Source: Candidatus Micrarchaeota archaeon
GTDB lineage: Archaea > Micrarchaeota > Micrarchaeia > Micrarchaeales > CABMGC01
Assembly: GCA_021827925.1 (NCBI GenBank)
Contig: JAKATZ010000001.1
Span: forward strand, 1 to 51,123
Reading direction: 5' to 3'
DNA: 51,123 bases
The notes below the pieces were generated by a model. It did not search any database. It worked only from the letters and a program-made list of their open reading frames with translations, and had not been told where the DNA came from. Of the stretch, positions 1 to 40,033 are shown piece after piece (positions within the stretch are counted from its first letter, which is position 1; every line of letters begins with the position of its first letter). Both the position numbers and the translations under genes were made by a program.

Positions 1-2716
1 ATCTAAAACAGTATAGACCACTTTCATCAAAGTAAAAAGAGCTTTTCTCTGATATGGCCGGAGTTATAATCTTCGGTATTTCAAACTTCTCTTTCGAGAC
101 GGGTTGTTCTATTTCAAACCATTTTAAGTCTTTGCGTTGTTTGAATTGTGCCCTATTTTCTAATACAGGTTTATATTTTAATAGGTGATTTATGGTCTTT
201 GGAATGAGTCTTTCCTCTTTTCCGTTAGGATAAATACAGTATTTTATTGATTTAACCGCAAACGGTTCAATATCTTTTCCCATAACTACCGGTTTCGCTA
301 AACCTTCCTCATAACTGTCCGTATTTTCCACTATAAAGGCTTCATTAAAACCAGTTCTCATACCTATAATGACATCCTTAGCAAATGTTGGGCATAGCGG
401 TTTTCCTGCATCTTTTATCTTTTTCAAGACCTTTGCTTTCTCTTCGGAAACTATCTGCCATTTTTCCTCAGATAACGCATTTTGATTCAAATCTGTAAAT
501 TCTATTCCAAATATCTCATTCCTTTGCTTCTTGATTAACAATAAAACCTCGCTTAGCTCATTTGATTTTATTATCGCCCTGTCAGTTACATTAACTGCAT
601 GAATTGGTTCTGAATATTCCTTGTCCGAATTAAGAACAAAAATTGATGGGTAATTCGTCGCATCCGCAAATAGCTTAGAATCACCAAAGTCTACTATTTG
701 TTCTATCTTAGAATTATCAATAATAAATTTCCTTGTCCCTTTTCCATACCCAGTTTTCATAAATTTGTTGGAAGTGATATATCCAAGCTTTCCTTTATCA
801 TTCAATAGTTTGATCCCTAGCTCTATAAAATAGACGTATAAATCTGCCCTGCCCGTATAGACTTCAGGAAACGCCTTTTCTAATTGCCACTTATTTGAAA
901 CTTCTTCTTGTCTTACATAAGGTGGATTGCCAACCACAAAATCGTATTTCTTCTTTTTTAGTTCTTCAATAGTAACCAAATCCTTGGCCATGTTCTTTCC
1001 AGACCCATCATAAAATTGTGTTATACTTGATTGTTCCTTTGGAAGTTCGAGAGAGTCAGTCCCATACACCTTAAAACGTGGTACTACAAAGGTTCTATTT
1101 GCCTTGTTTGCTTTGAAGTAAAGGTCTACTACTTGGAAAAGCAGATTCATTTCGCTAATGTTTACTGCAAATGGATTTATGTCAAATCCATGTACATGAA
1201 GAGCTACCGCATTCACTATTTCTTCGCATTCTTTTGGTGTAAGCCTATCAAGAACCTCTTGCCATTTTTTATTGTCTAGTGCCTCTTTAGGCGTTGCCTT
1301 CTCAAATTTTACTACACATCTAGCTATTAGTCTTCTAGCTGAGCGCACCAGAAAACCTCCAGACCCACATGCGGGGTCTATCAAATCTTTGTTTTCAATA
1401 GCTTTATTAGGCAGATATTCCACAGCGTCTAATATGTAGTCAATAACTTCATCTGGCGTATAAAACTCGCCAAGAGTTTTTCTTTCTTCTTTTGGTAAGT
1501 ACTTTTCATAAATTTTACCTAGTATATCCCTATCAACTTTAGAAAAATTAAATTGATTGAGAATCCAAAGCACTCGATTTAGAACTCTGTCTAGCTCTCC
1601 ATCTCCACTTTCATACCAATCCAAAGGATTGTTTTTTTCATAGAAATGATTGTATAGATGATTACCCCTATCGTATGAAAAATTAAAAACTATCTGCTTG
1701 AACACGCCGAGATCAGGGTCAGGAAAGGATTCGTCGTGTAGTAGATCACGCAGCTTTTCTATACCACCATTCGATATTATTCTTTTACCTATAAGTCCTT
1801 TATCCTCACATATTCTTATGAAAAGTAGTCTGTTAATAAGTACATAGATTGATTCCTTACAAAATACCTGTTTATTTTCTTCCTCTTTGTCATCTGGTCT
1901 ATTAGAAAGTGCCTTCCATATGTAATACCCAAGAAATGTAGAGTATTTTTTATACTTACCTTCTATTTTCATTTCATATGCAGCTATCCTAGATGCTTCT
2001 TTCTTATCGCCACCATTACTTTTCTTTATCACATCTATCTCATTTTTGGCCTGCTTGTACGCTGCATAATTAGCGTAATAATCATCAAATGAAGAATAAG
2101 TGTATTGTCGTAATATATCATTTGAAATATAGTTAAGTTGGTCTATAAGTTTTTCGAAGCCATTATCTTCAGCTACATCAATTTTAGCATAATACGGATC
2201 AAAAATAGCATATTTTGCTTCGCTCCATATTTGGATTTTTGTTATATTATTCAAGAAAAGGATTTGCTCTACTTCCTGTGTAGAAAGTTTAGCCTCAGCA
2301 AGTTTCTTTGAACTTATTAAACTCTTAAAGTCAATATCAGATTTTAGAATCTTTTCGTCATTTTTAATCTCCCATATTATAAATCTGTAGCCATTAGTAA
2401 GACCTATGAAATGAGTAGAAGAATCAGCATATTTGCCTGCTTGTTTGCGCCATGTTTCTTCATCTAGATTTTCTTTTGGTCTTTTTGTCTCTATTACAAC
2501 AACACGGTTTTTGTTTTCATCAAAAAGAGTTATATCTGTCCTGCTGCGTTCGAAAGTGTAATCCTGCCCGTCATAACCCAAAACCCCCTCTATTAGATAT
2601 TTGGCTAATCTCGGGCTAAAGTCGTGTTCAAGTGAGTCTATATTTATCTCACTATTTATCTTCTTAAAAGCGAGCAAGACTTTGTCTGTAAAACTTATCT
2701 CTGATTTAGAAACCAC
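1..2716 (-). CDS. Single-chain Type IIG (MmeI/Eco57I-like) restriction endonuclease fused to an N6-adenine DNA methyltransferase. The 3' end runs off the window, which explains its absence from the ORF track.
   Basis: My own translation of the minus strand (codon low coordinates equal 2 mod 3) found no in-frame stop from 2716 down to position 2. The N-terminus has a PD-(D/E)xK-like motif, DITLFDENKNRVVVIETKRP (about 2484-2540). Gamma-class MTase motifs follow: GEFYTPDEV, LIDPACGSGGFLV (1352-1378) and DFVVGNPPYV (NPPY at 917-928). After these come ADLYVYFIE and GYITSNKFM and a long C-terminal specificity-like region. The putative GTG start at 2716 follows an in-frame TAG, and a TATA-like AGTATATATT lies about 20 nt upstream. 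Confidence 0.8.
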   Translation of the reverse strand, partial: MVSKSEISFTDKVLLAFKKINSEINIDSLEHDFSPRLAKYLIEGVLGYDGQDYTFERSRTDITLFDENKNRVVVIETKRPKENLDEETWRKQAGKYADSSTHFIGLTNGYRFIIWEIKNDEKILKSDIDFKSLISSKKLAEAKLSTQEVEQILFLNNITKIQIWSEAKYAIFDPYYAKIDVAEDNGFEKLIDQLNYISNDILRQYTYSSFDDYYANYAAYKQAKNEIDVIKKSNGGDKKEASRIAAYEMKIEGKYKKYSTFLGYYIWKALSNRPDDKEEENKQVFCKESIYVLINRLLFIRICEDKGLIGKRIISNGGIEKLRDLLHDESFPDPDLGVFKQIVFNFSYDRGNHLYNHFYEKNNPLDWYESGDGELDRVLNRVLWILNQFNFSKVDRDILGKIYEKYLPKEERKTLGEFYTPDEVIDYILDAVEYLPNKAIENKDLIDPACGSGGFLVRSARRLIARCVVKFEKATPKEALDNKKWQEVLDRLTPKECEEIVNAVALHVHGFDINPFAVNISEMNLLFQVVDLYFKANKANRTFVVPRFKVYGTDSLELPKEQSSITQFYDGSGKNMAKDLVTIEELKKKKYDFVVGNPPYVRQEEVSNKWQLEKAFPEVYTGRADLYVYFIELGIKLLNDKGKLGYITSNKFMKTGYGKGTRKFIIDNSKIEQIVDFGDSKLFADATNYPSIFVLNSDKEYSEPIHAVNVTDRAIIKSNELSEVLLLIKKQRNEIFGIEFTDLNQNALSEEKWQIVSEEKAKVLKKIKDAGKPLCPTFAKDVIIGMRTGFNEAFIVENTDSYEEGLAKPVVMGKDIEPFAVKSIKYCIYPNGKEERLIPKTINHLLKYKPVLENRAQFKQRKDLKWFEIEQPVSKEKFEIPKIITPAISEKSSFYFDESGLYCFR

Positions 2717-2766
2717 TCTAACTACCTACCAATATATACTGCCTTTCAAACTTAAATCGCTTCCTA

Positions 2767-3732
2767 TTAGTCCCTGCCTTTCCCAGATAATAGTGCTAGT
2801 AGCACTAATCCAACCACACCGATACCTACCGCGGTTGCTAGGCCATCGTCATTATTACGTTTTTGAATATTCACTACCGCGCTTTTAATCAATTCCGCAG
2901 TTACATTTGGCGACTCTGCCTTCGAAAATTCAATCCATTCGTAATCGGTTTTCAGTTTTATTGATTTATCTTTGAGCAAAATAGTGGGCTTCTTAATCTG
3001 GATCGCATAATCTACTTCTTTTTTTACCCATTCGGAGTTTACTCCGTCCTCAGTTAATAACGCTATCAGCATTCTAGATTGGCGTATCATTTGTTGAAAT
3101 TTCTCATCAAGTCTTGCTCCTGGTTCAAATTTGTCCTCCCCTATCATAATCCCAAATCCTTCCTTGTCTAACATGGCCTCCAGTTGCCTTACTAATATCA
3201 TATCTTTGGTACTGTGCGAAAAGAAAATATTGATACCAGTAAGACTACGCTTAACTTCTAATATTACGGGGTTTGCCCATTCAGTTAGCACATTTTGAAA
3301 TTGTGCTGCGGGCAGATACTGTCCTTCAATCCCAAATCTAAACTCGTATTCATTTAACGCCAAATCATTTGGTATCGGTACTGAGATAGAAAACCGTCTC
3401 TGCATCCCACTCTTAATAAGGTCTTTTACTTCTTGCGCATGCCATTTGTCTGGCAACCATTCTGGTTGAATCCCTATACGCGTTAGGTAAATGTCCAAAG
3501 GAGAGGTATTTCTAAACACGAAATCTACCGGGACAACCTCACCAGGCAAATAACGTCTATTATTAAACGTCATATTTTCTACCGACCAATTGGGCTTTAC
3601 TGTGTTGGTAGTATGTGTTCTGATCTCATTGTGTATTTTGTATACCGTGCTTTTTTTATAGCCTTGTTGTATCAATTGCTGTGGCATAATACCTTTAAGC
3701 AGGTTGCTCCTTATGTCTTCTTCAAGTGCCAT
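2767..3732 (-). CDS. TIR-domain protein with a short N-terminal HTH-like segment, a central beta-rich domain and a C-terminal transmembrane anchor
   Basis: The TIR hallmarks are INIFFSHSTKD (beta-A), FEPGARLDEKFQQMIRQSRMLIALLTEDGVNSEWVKKEVDYA (the SxW..E motif with a candidate catalytic Glu). The C-terminus GLATAVGIGVVGLVLLALLSGKGRD is a predicted TM helix. Confidence 0.65.
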   Translation of the reverse strand: MALEEDIRSNLLKGIMPQQLIQQGYKKSTVYKIHNEIRTHTTNTVKPNWSVENMTFNNRRYLPGEVVPVDFVFRNTSPLDIYLTRIGIQPEWLPDKWHAQEVKDLIKSGMQRRFSISVPIPNDLALNEYEFRFGIEGQYLPAAQFQNVLTEWANPVILEVKRSLTGINIFFSHSTKDMILVRQLEAMLDKEGFGIMIGEDKFEPGARLDEKFQQMIRQSRMLIALLTEDGVNSEWVKKEVDYAIQIKKPTILLKDKSIKLKTDYEWIEFSKAESPNVTAELIKSAVVNIQKRNNDDGLATAVGIGVVGLVLLALLSGKGRD

Positions 3733-3826
3733 GAAATCACTGGTTTAATTAGGCTAATATAGATATTTAAGCTTTATGGATTTAATAGTAGACTTTAGTA
3801 GACTATAACCTGTCCAATGGTAGGTT

Positions 3827-4333
3827 TTACCAATTGTATCCGCTTGAATTTTGCTTTTCTTTGAAATACGCTCCTAATACGATGCCAAGCCCAGCCGCTA
3901 TTATATAAGCTACTATTTCGGCTACTGCATCTGGCGCAATAGCTCCTATGGCTTGTCCAAAAAGCCATAAGCTAGCAATCATCCCTAACACTGTTATGAA
4001 GGCCTCAAAAGATGCGACCAAGCCTTTAACAAAATTGATTAGTAGCGAGGCTATGAATACGACAACAACGTATTCGATAATAAGGCTTGCTGATTGCGTT
4101 CCTTCTGGCAAGCCATTGAAAGCATTTATGAATGCGAAAGCCATTAAAGATATGATCGCAGCTAGAAGTATCTCCACCATACCTTCTACGAATATGCCGA
4201 TGTATTTGGCTAGGGCTTTTTCTTCTGCGGACTGTGTCATAGTAACCGTTTGTCCTTTTAGATATTTATCTTTTATCTCAAACACGCCAAAAATTGTTTT
4301 CTCAAGGAAACCTGTAATCCTTAAAACCACCAC
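3827..4333 (-). CDS. Small integral membrane protein (about 4 TM helices) with an N-terminal cytosolic segment of about 45 aa
   Basis: Four hydrophobic stretches are visible: ILLAAIISLMAFAFINAF, LIIEYVVVVFIASLLINFV, FITVLGMIASLWLFGQAIG and IVAYIIAAGLGIVLGAYF. The gene is co-oriented with, and 94 nt upstream of, the TIR gene. I recognise no family. Confidence 0.5.
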   Translation of the reverse strand: MVVLRITGFLEKTIFGVFEIKDKYLKGQTVTMTQSAEEKALAKYIGIFVEGMVEILLAAIISLMAFAFINAFNGLPEGTQSASLIIEYVVVVFIASLLINFVKGLVASFEAFITVLGMIASLWLFGQAIGAIAPDAVAEIVAYIIAAGLGIVLGAYFKEKQNSSGYNW

Positions 4334-4573
4334 TCTATCGCTAATCCTTTTTGAGGATTAGCTCACGAGGGGGTCGTCCCAACGGACTTTAATCTGCCAC
4401 CAGAACCGAAACTAGAGCCGATTTTGTGGGGGGTCAAAATCGGCCGCCTTTTGTAGACAAAAGACGTAGTTTCTACGCCATCCATGTCCTACAAAGTAGC
4501 CGCAGCAGCCGTAGCCCGCCTAACACCACCGAAGGTGGTTCAGGAGGCGGGCGGAGGCTGCAAGGCGGGAGAG

Positions 4574-4719
4574 TCTCTACACGACTCTCTACATGGGCGG
4601 TCGTAATAGTGATGTGCAGTCATGTAGAGAGAAAATAATCCTATTTTGAAGGCTTACGAGGGAGATTTTCTCTACATGGAATGGCTTGGGCATGTAGAGA
4701 AACCCAAGTCATGTAGAGA
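4574..4719. repeat. Cluster of 10-bp iterons CATGTAGAGA (5 perfect copies and 1 imperfect copy, in both orientations)
   Basis: Forward copies lie at 4621-4630, 4691-4700 and 4710-4719. Reverse copies (TCTCTACATG) lie at 4586-4595 and 4669-4678. An imperfect copy, TCTCTACACG, lies at 4574-4583. The cluster sits immediately 3' of the integrase stop at 4726. Confidence 0.85.
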
Positions 4720-4725
4720 AAGCTG

Positions 4726-5625
4726 CTAGAAGGGCTTGGAAAGCCTTGCTTTCAGGCCAGAAGCCCGCTCAACCGAAAAGGCTTCGTCTACGGCCTTGTA
4801 AAGCTCGTCCTTTCTCGTGTTTATGTAAGTCATTGTGGTGCTTGGATCGCTGTGTCGTGCGAACCTGCTGGAAAGCACCACATTCCCGTTGCTCTGGCGT
4901 GCGAAGCTGGTTATTGCGTAGTGCCTCAGGCTGTGCGTAGTCAACCTATGGAGCCTCCTAGGCGTCCTTCCGTATGACTCCTCGCTCTGGTCGTAGACTT
5001 CGTCCAGCCTTGCCGCTTGGACATACTCCCTGAACACCTTACGCACATAGTTCTTCTCTAGGAACGGTTCGCCTCTTAGGCTATGCCCAAGTTCCGCGAA
5101 GAACATGAACCCGCCAGCTTGCGTGATCGCTTTTTCGTTCCTGTTTATGAACTCGACAGTTTGCCGAAAAAGTGGCACTGGAATAAGCATTGTGTCTATA
5201 ACGTGAGCTTTTTCAGTTTTCACGGTTAGCTCACGTGTCTCGAACTTGATGTCTTTGACATTGACTTTGACAGCTTCGCCTATCCTGAGTCCAAGCTGCG
5301 CTTGATACCCAAACAATAGGCGAAACTTGTCGTTTTCTATAACTTTGAAAAAGGCCTGCACCTCCTGTTCTGTGAAGCCCTTATTCAGGCTTCCATACTT
5401 TGGAGGCGCATTGCCTCTGAACCTTTTCTTCTTGATGTGGTAGATTACGGACAGGACATCCTTAATCTCATGGAAAGTTAGACTAGGAAGCACTTCTTTG
5501 ATGTGCTTCTTAAGTTTTTCGGGTTCGGTCTCCGTGATGGAATCGAACCGTGTGGGGCTTAATTCCTTTTCCTTGGCCAGTGAACTGAACCCGAGTTTGT
5601 CGTCGAAAATTTGATTTGCTCCCAT
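4726..5625 (-). CDS. Tyrosine recombinase / phage-type integrase
   Basis: Catalytic-type motifs are present: LGLRIGEA (Arg), THSLRHYAIT (HxxR), ARHSD (His) and TMTYIN (Tyr). The start codon overlaps the tRNA-like fragment. Confidence 0.85.
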   Translation of the reverse strand: MGANQIFDDKLGFSSLAKEKELSPTRFDSITETEPEKLKKHIKEVLPSLTFHEIKDVLSVIYHIKKKRFRGNAPPKYGSLNKGFTEQEVQAFFKVIENDKFRLLFGYQAQLGLRIGEAVKVNVKDIKFETRELTVKTEKAHVIDTMLIPVPLFRQTVEFINRNEKAITQAGGFMFFAELGHSLRGEPFLEKNYVRKVFREYVQAARLDEVYDQSEESYGRTPRRLHRLTTHSLRHYAITSFARQSNGNVVLSSRFARHSDPSTTMTYINTRKDELYKAVDEAFSVERASGLKARLSKPF

Positions 5626-10871: not shown

Positions 10872-11319
10872 TGGATCAGCGATTAGAAGGTCGCACTATG
10901 AATTTATAATGCTTTTTGGGTGCTTTTAGCCAAAGCGCATATTCGCCATTATCCCTGAATGATACTGTCCCTGCAAGATATCCTATAATAATATTCAATA
11001 ATTTCGGAATAGCGCCATCGTACGTTTGGAGTACAAACCAATCCAGGGTGGTATACAAGAATTCCGACTTTTCTATCTTTTTGCCAAAGGGCGCCGCATG
11101 CGTTGAAGGTTTAGGAAATGTTCCCTTCTCCTTGTTGCTGCTTAGGCCTTCAGAAAAGGCTGAACATTGGGAGGTGTAGAAGTTCTGCAAATTCCTTAGA
11201 GTATCTGCGGCTTTTGTTGGCTTGTGGGATTTCTATCACCATTGCAAAAGCTGAAAAGAACTTGAGAGGGCAATGGTGCCGATATGAAACCCTTCGTAGC
11301 AAATTTGCCTTAAAGTACT

Positions 11320-11940
11320 TCAAGTTTTATTTATATTGGATATTTGGTATGCTATAAGTTGCTTGACCTGGCTTGGTTTGAGCGTGAAGTTTGATGAACC
11401 TAAAGTAGCATTACCAGAGGTATCTATAGAAAAAATGTAGTAGCCGTCAATTGCAGTTATAACAGTTTGATTCTCAACATAATAGGGTTGGTCACCAGAG
11501 AAGCTAGCATTGAAAACAAGATATCTTACATTCCCCAAGGTTCCGTTGTATTCGTTCTGTACCTTTACATAATTAGGCAATGAATTTGCAGTAATGTCAT
11601 TATACGAGTTATTTTCTTGAGTTATGTTTCTATAATGGGTTAGAAAAACAAATAACTGTTCATCATGAGATGCCATGCCGGTACTTGTTAATCCTTCATT
11701 AATCATACTTATTATTGAAGCGTTTGATAATAGTAGAGTAGGTTGAGTAAGAAGAGTCCAATTGCCACCTAGAACACTTTCTGCTTGACTAACAGTTAGC
11801 AGATTATAACTAGTACTTAGAGTATTAGAGATAGAGTTTGCATAAGTTCGATTTGGGATTACCGTTTGTACAAATACTGACACAATAATGGCAACTAAAA
11901 TTATCGCCATTATAATGATAGCTAAGTGCTTCCCATTCAT
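11320..11940 (-). CDS. N-terminally anchored or secreted protein rich in N-x-S/T sequons
   Basis: The N-terminal TM helix is LAIIIMAIILVAIIVSVFV. There are about 10 N-x-S/T sequons. The gene lies in a local AT-rich stretch. Confidence 0.5.
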   Translation of the reverse strand: MNGKHLAIIIMAIILVAIIVSVFVQTVIPNRTYANSISNTLSTSYNLLTVSQAESVLGGNWTLLTQPTLLLSNASIISMINEGLTSTGMASHDEQLFVFLTHYRNITQENNSYNDITANSLPNYVKVQNEYNGTLGNVRYLVFNASFSGDQPYYVENQTVITAIDGYYIFSIDTSGNATLGSSNFTLKPSQVKQLIAYQISNINKT

Positions 11941-12059
11941 AGAGGTAAATCTAAGTCAAAGATTAATAAACAGTGCGTTCTTGATTAGTAGTCGGTGTGC
12001 TTTGAGATGAAGGCCACGATCTCGTTGCCTGGGCCTTCTCTGTCTTCAAGGCCAATTCC

Positions 12060-12290
12060 TTAGTTTCTAGGCCTAGGGAGTTGATGTTGGCTCTCAGCTT
12101 CTCCTATTCTAAGCCCAAGCTGCGCTTGGTAGCTGAATAACATGCGAAACTTGCCAGAGGCTATTGCATGAAAGAACCTTTGAAGCTGTGAGTAGGAAAA
12201 CGCCTTGAGATTGAGCTCGCCATGTACTACAAAGTAGCCGTAGCCCGCCGTCCGAACGTAGCGCAGCACGCCAGAACCTGCCCAGAGCAT
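12060..12290 (-). pseudogene. Remnant of a tyrosine integrase related to the 4726-5625 gene; the catalytic C-terminal domain is missing
   Basis: GELNLKAFSYSQLQRFFHAIASGKFRMLFSYQAQLGLRIGEA aligns with GSLNKGFTEQEVQAFFKVIENDKFRLLFGYQAQLGLRIGEA of the intact integrase. Similarity is also visible at the nucleotide level. The ORF ends shortly after the first catalytic Arg. Confidence 0.7.
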
Positions 12291-28472: not shown

Positions 28473-29000
28473 ATGGATTTGATATACATATACGGTCCAC
28501 CAGGGGTTGGCAAGTTCACCGTAGCAACGGAGTTGGCGAAGATTACTGGATATAGGTTATTTCACAATCAGCTGAGCATAGAGTTCGTTAAATCGGTATT
28601 CGATTTCGGCACAGAACCATTCAACAGGCTCGTGCTTAGATACCGCGCGGAGATTATAGAAGAAGCAGCGAAACAAGATGTCTCGGTGATATTCACATCG
28701 GCTTATGTCAAGGGGCTAAGCGATCCCATAATAAAGGACATAGTCAAACGCGTGGAACGGCACGGTGGGAGGGTATGCTTCGTACAGCTCTTTTGCAAAC
28801 GAGAGGAGCTGCTCCGGAGGGTTAGCAGCAGGTCGCGCATGAGGTTCTACAAGATAAGATCCGTGAAGTTCATGAAGGAGCTTCTCGGAAAGTATAACCA
28901 TTTCTCCAGGATCACTTTCAGGCGAAGCCTTTCAATAGACAATACGCGTCTAGGGCCGGCTGATGCTGCGGAGAAGATAGCAAGACATTATAGACTATGA
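28473..29000 (+). CDS. Small P-loop kinase/NTPase (AAA_33 or shikimate-kinase-like)
   Basis: The Walker A-like motif is GPPGVGKFT, which has Phe where Ser or Thr is usual. Confidence 0.5.
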   Translation: MDLIYIYGPPGVGKFTVATELAKITGYRLFHNQLSIEFVKSVFDFGTEPFNRLVLRYRAEIIEEAAKQDVSVIFTSAYVKGLSDPIIKDIVKRVERHGGRVCFVQLFCKREELLRRVSSRSRMRFYKIRSVKFMKELLGKYNHFSRITFRRSLSIDNTRLGPADAAEKIARHYRL

Positions 29001-29444
29001 TATATTGTGGACTTTCCCGAAACCAAAATAGTAGAGCAAGGCAGCGACGCTGACGCAGTCGCTCATCTCGCCGCTGCGTATAAGAGAAAGAACTTTTTCC
29101 CCAGTTAGGTTTATCACGTCTATGTCCTCTTCTGGTTCGAGTGCTCTTTCTCCGGGGCTGAGATCCTCTGCAAGAACCACATGAAAGACGAGTTTCGGAT
29201 GCAGGAGCGTGAATGATGCAAGATGAGTCGCCTTTCCAGCGGAGTATCCGGATTCTTCCTTAAGTTCCCTGAGACCTGCTGCGACGGGATCTTCGCCTTT
29301 CTCTACGGCTCCTCCGAACAGACCGTACATCCTGCGTTTGTGATTCGACCTGTATTCATGCGCTATGAGAAATGTCGAATCTGCAAGTACAGGTATAACA
29401 AGGGCTACGTTTCGCATAATATCACACGGTATTGGCATTCTCAT
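28995..29444 (-). CDS. NUDIX hydrolase
   Basis: The Nudix box is GGAVEKGEDPVAAGLRELKEESGY. Confidence 0.85.
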   Translation of the reverse strand: MRMPIPCDIMRNVALVIPVLADSTFLIAHEYRSNHKRRMYGLFGGAVEKGEDPVAAGLRELKEESGYSAGKATHLASFTLLHPKLVFHVVLAEDLSPGERALEPEEDIDVINLTGEKVLSLIRSGEMSDCVSVAALLYYFGFGKVHNIS

Positions 29445-39913: not shown

Positions 39914-40033
39914 TGGCGGGGGCGAGATTTGAACACGCGGCCTCTAGATTTCTTAGTCATAGCAAAGAATGCTCATCACTCATTATGCTCGGCATATGAG
40001 TCTAGCGCTCTAACCAGGCTGAGCTACCCCGCC
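39914..40033 (-). tRNA. tRNA with CAU anticodon (elongator Met or Ile2) carrying a 45-nt intron at the canonical 37/38 position
   Basis: Folded by hand, the minus strand reads GGCGGGG TA GCTC AGCCTGGTTA GAGC G CTAGA CTCATA [45-nt intron] A TCTAG AGGCC GCGTG TTCAAAT CTCGC CCCCGCC A. The T-stem has one U-U mismatch. It is not initiator-like: there is no A1-U72 and no GGG/CCC anticodon stem. Confidence 0.85.

Follow-up and report, generated by a model that had tools for sequence, protein, structure and literature searches.

The 51,123-nucleotide (nt) window analysed here, positions 1 to 51,123 of contig JAKATZ010000001.1 from a Candidatus Micrarchaeota archaeon (assembly GCA_021827925.1), carries near its start a gene for a 321-amino-acid (aa) protein with a TIR domain. 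On one side of this gene lies a Type IIG-like restriction-modification (RM) gene, and on the other a gene for a small protein with four transmembrane (TM) segments, followed by an integrase gene (Table 1). The initial annotation, made from the letters of this DNA alone, described the place as an AT-rich island between an integrase and a Type IIG RM gene. This description is accurate, as the GC content falls to 0.30-0.42 over positions 2-4333 against 0.49 in the remaining window, and both the PF00589 integrase and the Eco57I-type gene are present. The Eco57I/N6_Mtase protein carries an HSDR_N_2 head and extends from about position 2716 past the window start. We found that the 321-aa protein is a member of an undescribed stand-alone family, whose gene moves from genome to genome by itself and takes its promoter region along.

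Table 1. Features of the TIR locus and its neighbours (positions in the window; all on the reverse strand)
Feature	Position	Strand	Basis or remark
TIR-protein gene	2767..3732	-	Open reading frame (ORF), 321 aa; stop codon 2767-2769; 66 full-length homologues; AlphaFold2 (AF2) pLDDT 87.5
Three-helix helix-turn-helix (HTH)-like module, residues 1-40, with near-invariant KKSTVYK helix	3613..3732	-	AF2, Foldseek, upstream motif
Ig-like beta-sandwich, residues 48-162	3247..3591	-	Foldseek, N-terminal profile
TIR domain, residues 168-272; box 1 IFFSHSTKD, BB-loop GEDKFEPG, SEWVKKE	2917..3231	-	Pfam, PDB profiles, Foldseek, invariant columns
Candidate catalytic glutamate E239 in SEWVKKE	codon 3016-3018	-	Family alignment
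Hydrophobic Gly/Ala-rich C-terminal helix, residues 297-316, then 5-residue tail	2785..2844	-	Hydropathy
AGTCTACTA as a perfect direct repeat, the two copies separated by a single base	3796-3804 and 3786-3794	-	Candidate operator
Variant half-site ATCCATAA	3774-3781	-	Adjoins TATA-like element
TATA-like TTAAATAT, 31 nt upstream of ATG	3763-3770	-	Sequence
Small 4-TM protein, most likely 137 aa from ATG 4240	3827..4240	-	Adjacent; not a conserved partner
Eco57I/PglX-like N6-adenine methyltransferase with nuclease-like N-terminus, Type IIG-like	2..2716	-	Runs off window start
Tyrosine recombinase/integrase	4726..5625	-	PF00589, E=9e-12; NCBIfam XerA-like, below cut-off

Structure prediction from 66 homologues (pTM 0.76) divides the protein into three helices within residues 3-40, an all-beta part at 49-160, an alpha/beta TIR part at 168-272 and a long helix at 275-315. 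Together with hydropathy, this segmentation bears out the order read from the sequence at the outset, namely HTH-like head, beta domain, TIR and TM tail. The TIR core itself is confirmed by Pfam TIR_2 (PF13676; 55.3 bits against a cut-off of 28, E=1.2e-14, residues 169-272), and the cut-offs of Pfam TIR and ThsB_TIR are likewise exceeded. A profile of the family matches the solved TIR structures of TLR1 (the best PDB match), Cat1, BtTir and AbTIR, while Foldseek finds the TIRs of SARM1 (9ugj_F, TMt 0.66, rmsd 4.1) and TIR-STING (9lmq_A, rmsd 3.3). In the alignment, residue E239 shares its column with the WxxxE glutamates of Cat1 (SDWCWDEL) and BtTir (KNWTEYEL). Fold matches of the 321-aa protein in BFVD were found at the level of single domains only.

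The beta domain, which gave no direct Pfam match in the window protein, resembles Ig-like folds of several kinds in Foldseek: TRAP luminal domains, N-terminal Ig-like domains of glycosidases, Spo0M/arrestin and ASH/PapD (E=1e-7 to 1e-5). The N-terminal family profile also reaches repeats in giant proteins, and the smaller relatives collected with it score as CARDB, NEW3, NPCBM_assoc or MG2. Hydropathy detects a single hydrophobic segment, residues 296-319 of 321, and none at the N-terminus. Since the only hydrophobic segment is C-terminal and there is no signal peptide, the protein would be tail-anchored by predicted insertion of this segment, with all three folded domains in the cytoplasm.

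A word-indexed search returned 66 clusters of relatives, formed at 90% identity, which are about 310-358 aa long and 36-90% identical to the window protein; all 66 carry PF13676. An exhaustive profile search with the N-terminal 163 residues brought in, at 50% clustering, about 45 more full-length representatives, and a broader set of 59 complete genes, some only 30% identical, was drawn from contigs. In the 66 sequences F170, S172 and S174 of box 1, E199 and P204 of the BB-loop, and S233, V236 and E239 are invariant, W235 being nearly so. The candidate catalytic glutamate pointed out in the initial annotation is thus conserved: E239, within S-x-W-x-x-x-E, is found in 66/66 homologues and in 55/59 genes of the broader set. 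The C-terminal hydrophobic helix is kept in 66/66 and 58/59. Mean pairwise identity is highest in the HTH (0.53) and TIR (0.52) domains, lower in the beta-sandwich (0.44) and lowest in the TM segment (0.33) and the linker helix (0.26). The family has one fixed four-part architecture.

The family is largely archaeal (Nitrososphaerota), with some bacterial-type loci in addition. No relative was found in the IMG/VR viral collection or the GenBank phage collection, and PLSDB plasmids gave only one match, to the TIR core, on a Natrinema megaplasmid. PADLOC and NCBIfam models matched the TIR core alone, far below family cut-offs, and literature searches turned up no account of a protein combining HTH, Ig-like domain, TIR and tail anchor, nor of its operator. 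One copy, on a Nitrosopumilus sp. chromosome from a metagenome (OZ245003.1, L012:8001-8990), has an in-frame stop at the Ser codon of S-x-W-x-x-x-E (…HSALM(stop)DWVRWEIDY…). Operator sites are missing upstream of this copy, which is probably a pseudogene in decay.

The conserved residues and the tail also bear on how such a protein could kill. The TIR might be mainly an assembly scaffold or a signal generator, with killing left to clustered Gly/Ala-rich C-terminal helices that breach the membrane, or to an unlinked effector encoded elsewhere in the genome. The TM tail is universally kept and rich in small residues, which would suit helix-helix packing; CBASS, Pycsar and Thoeris systems commonly employ effectors that disrupt membranes; and some TIRs are pure scaffolds, TLR1 being the top PDB match here. 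However, a single TM helix with a tail of 2-10 residues makes a minimal pore former, the low conservation of the TM segment (33% pairwise) is anchor-like, no effector is linked to the gene, and the invariant residues of box 1, the BB-loop and WxxxE argue for retained catalysis. We regard this explanation as unlikely. What fits best is a putative membrane-tethered NADase, which the initial annotation had offered as its fallback.

The first choice of that annotation was a two-gene module, in which the TIR protein acts as a sensor and the neighbouring 4-TM protein as a membrane effector. It rested on a 168-aa four-TM protein on the same strand, 94 nt upstream. The coordinates of the mechanical ORF (3827-4333, reverse strand, 168 aa, extending to GTG 4333) and about four hydrophobic segments in the hydropathy profile are indeed there, but the length is probably 137 aa. 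The true start is most likely ATG 4240, because the only relative is similar from residue 34 onwards and this ATG is preceded, at about 25 nt, by a TATA-like box. That relative is the single homologue of the 4-TM protein among 5.8 billion proteins. It is encoded on a 5.2-kb contig with nothing else in common with the window, and no TIR gene starts within 240 nt past it.

From 61 distinct genomic contexts in which the TIR family is found, we took the 270 neighbouring ORFs (within 3.5 kb) and clustered them all-against-all. None of the resulting families is shared by more than three contexts, no small multi-TM protein is a consistent neighbour, and tblastn with the 4-TM protein gave no match in the 60 contexts other than the window. 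In the closest relative with known context (L021, about 60% identity), the unit of operator, promoter and gene follows an MvaI/BcnI restriction gene in place of the 4-TM gene. Because the 61 contexts have no conserved neighbour, the 4-TM gene does not co-occur and L021 has a different neighbour, the TIR gene must be taken as a stand-alone unit. We rejected the two-gene module on account of the rarity of the 4-TM protein, its absence from the other contexts and the lack of any neighbour family in more than three of them. Evidently, adjacency and co-orientation within one defence island are no evidence of a functional pair, a lesson which holds for annotation at large.

Among other candidates for a conserved partner none recurs, except a C-terminally hydrophobic protein in three high-GC divergent loci. 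The three loci belong to the most divergent high-GC clade, with about 30% identity, and the gene directly upstream of the TIR gene (L069:2480-2983, L070:118-546, L073:3350-3763) encodes about 140-170 aa ending in a hydrophobic segment. No other neighbour was seen to recur, and this one may be a partner specific to the clade.

The same comparison decides about a Thoeris-like arrangement, in which the TIR sensor would make a signal nucleotide and the adjacent 4-TM protein would be its membrane effector. Both genes point the same way, the 94 nt between them contain no oligo-T terminator, and Thoeris types II, V and VII do pair TIRs with TM effectors (bioRxiv 10.64898/2025.12.03.692087). The TIR protein also has weak matches to ThsB models (PF08937, 29.2 bits against 21.2; PADLOC ThsB, E=4e-10, TIR core only). 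As ThsB proteins join a TIR to a sensor domain, so its TIR is joined to a putative one, and several Thoeris effectors are membrane proteins. Nevertheless, the only homologue of the 4-TM protein lies in a locus without a TIR gene, and the 4-TM protein has no ligand-binding domain: no Pfam, PADLOC or NCBIfam family matched it, and neither Macro, SLOG nor any other domain was detected. The TIR gene is served by a TATA-like box and an operator of its own, which are missing upstream of the 4-TM gene, and in L021 the operator-gene unit is preceded by a different gene. Unlike Thoeris of types I-XI, the family has no linked effector gene in the 61 contexts and bears its anchor on the TIR protein itself; against the type III ThcB4 model of NCBIfam it reaches 22 bits, the cut-off being 220. 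Since it lacks the linked effector by which Thoeris is defined, the family does not belong there. Comparative genomics has already largely refuted the pairing, and we hold it to be very improbable indeed.

A CBASS or Pycsar TIR effector was considered as well and rejected, PF10137 scoring 21.9 bits, below its cut-off of 24.7, and no cyclase appearing among the recurrent neighbour families listed.

Instead of a partner, it is a cis-element that is conserved and travels with the TIR gene across loci. The words AGTCTAC, AGTCCAC or AGTCCAT are repeated, in either orientation, in the 110 nt upstream of the gene. At least two matches to GTC[CT]A[CT] occur in the upstream 100 nt at 42 of 61 loci, as opposed to 1.3% of 3,767 control windows taken from the same contigs (binomial P ~6e-65), and the mean density is 1.89 sites per 100 nt upstream versus 0.16 in controls. 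An unbiased ranking of 6-mers led to the same motif: 14 of the top 15 words overlap it, and the first, AGTCTA, is present at 41/61 loci and in 2.8% of controls (P=9e-49). Flanking positions widen the motif to A-GTC[CT]A[CT]-WAA (A-GTCYAY-WAA). Usually there are two or three copies, with recurring spacings of 9-10, 12-13 and 17 nt.

The position of the sites depends on the type of promoter. At archaeal-type loci, with a TATA-type promoter and no Shine-Dalgarno sequence, the proximal site abuts the B recognition element (BRE)/TATA, often in the arrangement (G/T)TCCAYAA-N3-4-TATA. Loci of the bacterial type, recognisable by TTGACA, a -10 box and GGAGG, have two sites in the interval from the -10 box to the ribosome-binding site. 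Because the motif is kept with both kinds of promoter, it is not a basal promoter element.

In the window the motif has three strict pairs, near a rough chance estimate of about two. No promoter-associated cluster other than that of the TIR gene was found within the 51 kb, and the motif is not present upstream of the 4-TM gene. The second strict pair, AGTCCACAA and AGTCTATAA 17 nt apart at 28988-29013 (reverse strand), was discarded as it falls in the overlapping coding 3' ends of two convergent genes. No second gene with the HTH module was found in the window.

A candidate for binding these sites is the N-terminal head of the protein. Modelled in isolation (pLDDT 85.8), it forms three helices (3-12, 17-22 and 27-40). 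Its top Foldseek matches are mostly HTHs of resolvase, TrpR and LuxR (TMq ~0.6, rmsd 1.4-2.3; best E=2.1), its profile finds gamma-delta resolvase 1res with E=0.26, and among 16 members submitted to Pfam HTH_7 was seen in two (best E=0.044), HTH_23 reaching 0.034. Matches of the HTH profile to TAL effectors were dismissed as spurious, being sums over a 10-residue repeat with no single significant stretch, and a search with the 45-aa HTH profile returned five short fragments only. The simplest reading is that the head binds the motif upstream of its own gene, a predicted interaction by which the gene would be self-regulated.

The head is also encountered outside the family. Small HTH-only proteins of about 100-210 aa with varied C-termini (L091:2160, L093:1612, L089, L092; P0140, P0163, P0186, P0188, P0201) share …GYKKSTVYKV…, and one subgroup has a C-terminal …S.EQY..LG.P… domain. 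Several of their genes have AGTCYAY upstream, up to 8 sites in 120 nt; by locus, there are 5-8 sites at L091 and L093 and two each at L089 and L092. From these sequences, the HTH head and its site look like a portable cassette.

A bolder idea is that the head does more than repress its own gene and serves a membrane-bound TIR receptor as the end that senses DNA. Several protomers would be aligned by arrays of sites, or by foreign DNA reaching the membrane, and the TIR thereby switched on, and the cassette of HTH and operator would be portable across archaea and bacteria with varied effectors. We consider this quite improbable.

Genes within about 3 kb of family members were inspected for defence functions. 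RM genes are frequent neighbours: Type IIG in the window, Type II Eco29kI (L008-10) and MvaI/BcnI (L021), and Type I (L019, L024, L036, L077). Mrr and a Schlafen/AlbA_2 protein are found at L023, a short pAgo with APAZ at L019, ApeA/PDC-S58 at L003, bSEFIR at L002 and PD-Lambda-4_A at L014, and further loci adjoin GajB, ShosA and LmuB (Gabija, Shosha and Lamassu genes), MADS, HEPN or other TIR proteins. The defence surroundings claimed at the outset are therefore shared by relatives, and the TIR gene does recur next to defence genes, but alone. The pair is seen in none of the 60 other contexts, an outcome which the initial annotation had named as refuting its claim, and which concerns the pair and not the TIR gene by itself.

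Two of the loci deserve separate description. In L019 (2327-6996) the TIR-family gene lies 261 nt downstream of the short pAgo gene (PADLOC E=7e-105), accompanied by an APAZ-like protein, two uncharacterised genes and the adjoining Type I RM genes; this TIR copy, which may have been recruited to the pAgo system, has no strict operator sites upstream. In L018 (6001-7071) a 2-oxoacid dehydrogenase operon is interrupted, between its E1-beta and E2 genes, by a divergent member of the family (36% identity). The contig is high-GC and bacterial-looking, with OmpR-type regulators, and two operator sites precede the TIR-family gene.

A DNA-binding head tied to a membrane also brings to mind regulators with no role in immunity. 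In one-component regulators of the ToxR and CadC type, a single chain begins with a cytoplasmic DNA-binding domain and crosses the membrane by one TM helix; their DNA-binding domains are winged-helix, OmpR-type, and their sensor domain is periplasmic. By analogy, the 321-aa protein might be a non-immune membrane-tethered transcription factor, its TIR and beta-sandwich serving as protein-interaction or small-molecule modules in some housekeeping response, and the HTH head with its conserved DNA motif and the housekeeping surroundings of L015 and L018 are in keeping with it. Yet the family lacks an extracytoplasmic sensor domain: unlike in the ToxR/CadC type, only 2-10 residues follow the membrane segment, and the cytoplasmic part contains an enzyme-type TIR. 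Moreover, the motif clusters at the gene's own promoter and at no other in the 51-kb window. The distribution is patchy, as expected from horizontal transfer, with AT-rich composition beside an integrase; RM and other defence neighbours recur; and the Nitrosopumilus copy carries a nonsense mutation. A regulator of this sort is, in our view, distinctly unlikely.

Known immune TIR proteins offer closer parallels. Single-protein antiphage systems TIR-II, -V, -VI and -IX have been described in E. coli (Nat Commun 2024, PMC11350192), and four of the nine new E. coli TIR systems of that study also carry a TM, AAA, TPR or DUF4238 domain, a TM segment being part of one of the nine (PMC11350192). Like the present family, these are single genes; there, the active-site residues of the TIR are needed for defence, and infection leads to earlier cell death (PMC11350192). 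Unlike it, they are not described as having an HTH head, an Ig-like beta-sandwich, a C-terminal tail anchor or an autoregulatory operator (PMC11350192); the homology seen covers the TIR domain, and the hosts are E. coli on one side and largely archaea on the other. SARM1, AbTir/BtTir, Cat1, TIR-STING and SPARTA share the TIR fold and the WxxxE glutamate, and are fusions of a sensor and a TIR effector which work on their own by depleting NAD+. Their sensors differ (ARM/SAM, CARF, STING, APAZ-Ago), and none is known to be tail-anchored or to have an N-terminal HTH. By analogy, then, the 321-aa protein would work most like the single-protein TIR systems and the assembly-activated NADase TIRs.

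Taken together, we propose that the gene specifies an autoregulated, tail-anchored, single-protein TIR defence with predicted NADase activity, and not one half of a pair. In our judgement this proposal has an even chance of being right, and the function is so far inferred from sequence and genomic context. The HTH head would bind the upstream motif and thereby control its own gene, most likely by repression, as proposed from the positions of the sites: abutting the BRE/TATA at archaeal-type promoters and between the -10 box and the ribosome-binding site at bacterial-type ones. Autorepression would keep a potentially toxic enzyme at a low level. A cue of infection, perceived by the beta-sandwich or by the HTH, could then bring about TIR-TIR assembly at the membrane surface, whereupon the assembled active site with E239 would cleave NAD+ and the cell would be arrested before the virus completes its cycle. 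The tether would favour cooperative assembly by two-dimensional confinement, and it may also position the sensor where viral DNA enters.

Several observations weigh against this proposal. The conserved WxxxE glutamate is kept in the non-enzymatic TIR of TLR1, too. No single method lends the HTH assignment statistical significance (best E values 0.034-2.1), and binding of the motif by the protein's own HTH is inferred. The motif was first spotted by eye in sequences which were later used to test it, a concern that the 6-mer scan and the HTH-only loci lessen but do not fully remove. The beta-sandwich, at 44% identity, is more conserved than would be expected of a domain chasing variable viral proteins. 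Finally, the enrichment of defence neighbours is qualitative, and several members, L015 and L018 for instance, reside amid housekeeping genes.

Hardly anything of archaeal TIR immunity has been charted, and the TIR systems known so far have mostly been defined via their partner genes. Here, a regulator, a putative sensor, an enzyme and a membrane anchor are fitted into about 320 residues, under promoters of both archaeal and bacterial type. If the proposal is true, this is a new single-gene defence family, with an immune effector fused to its own transcriptional control, and it would offer a compact model for the contribution of membrane tethering to TIR activation.

The surroundings of the TIR gene contain further features of note. 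Directly past the integrase stop codon, CATGTAGAGA is found six times, in both orientations, within 146 nt at 4574-4719, five of these copies being exact and the sixth differing at one position; the entire window has 10 matches, 3.7 being expected. These repeats may be recombinase arm sites or an attachment region. No tRNA or Rfam element that could mark an attachment site was found beside the integrase. The non-coding stretch between the integrase and the 4-TM gene (4440-4620) is GC-rich, with 0.66 at 4500-4599, and its RNA would fold into a long hairpin structure (-82.9 kcal/mol, z=-5.6 versus shuffled sequences), which matched no Rfam family.

A second AT-rich patch (GC 0.376) is located at 11000-12290. 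On its reverse strand it encodes a 206-aa protein with a hydrophobic N-terminal segment and many N-x-S/T motifs (11320-11940), and a 76-aa fragment (12060-12290) with 60% identity to residues 77-118 of the integrase encoded at 4726-5625. Judged by this similarity, the fragment looks like a relic of a second, related integration. At 39914-40033 (reverse strand), Rfam detects a 120-nt tRNA missed by ARAGORN; its length suggests an intron and fits an archaeal host. Archaeal traits of the window comprise, along with this intron-containing tRNA, an archaeal-type AdoMet synthetase and promoters of the TATA type.

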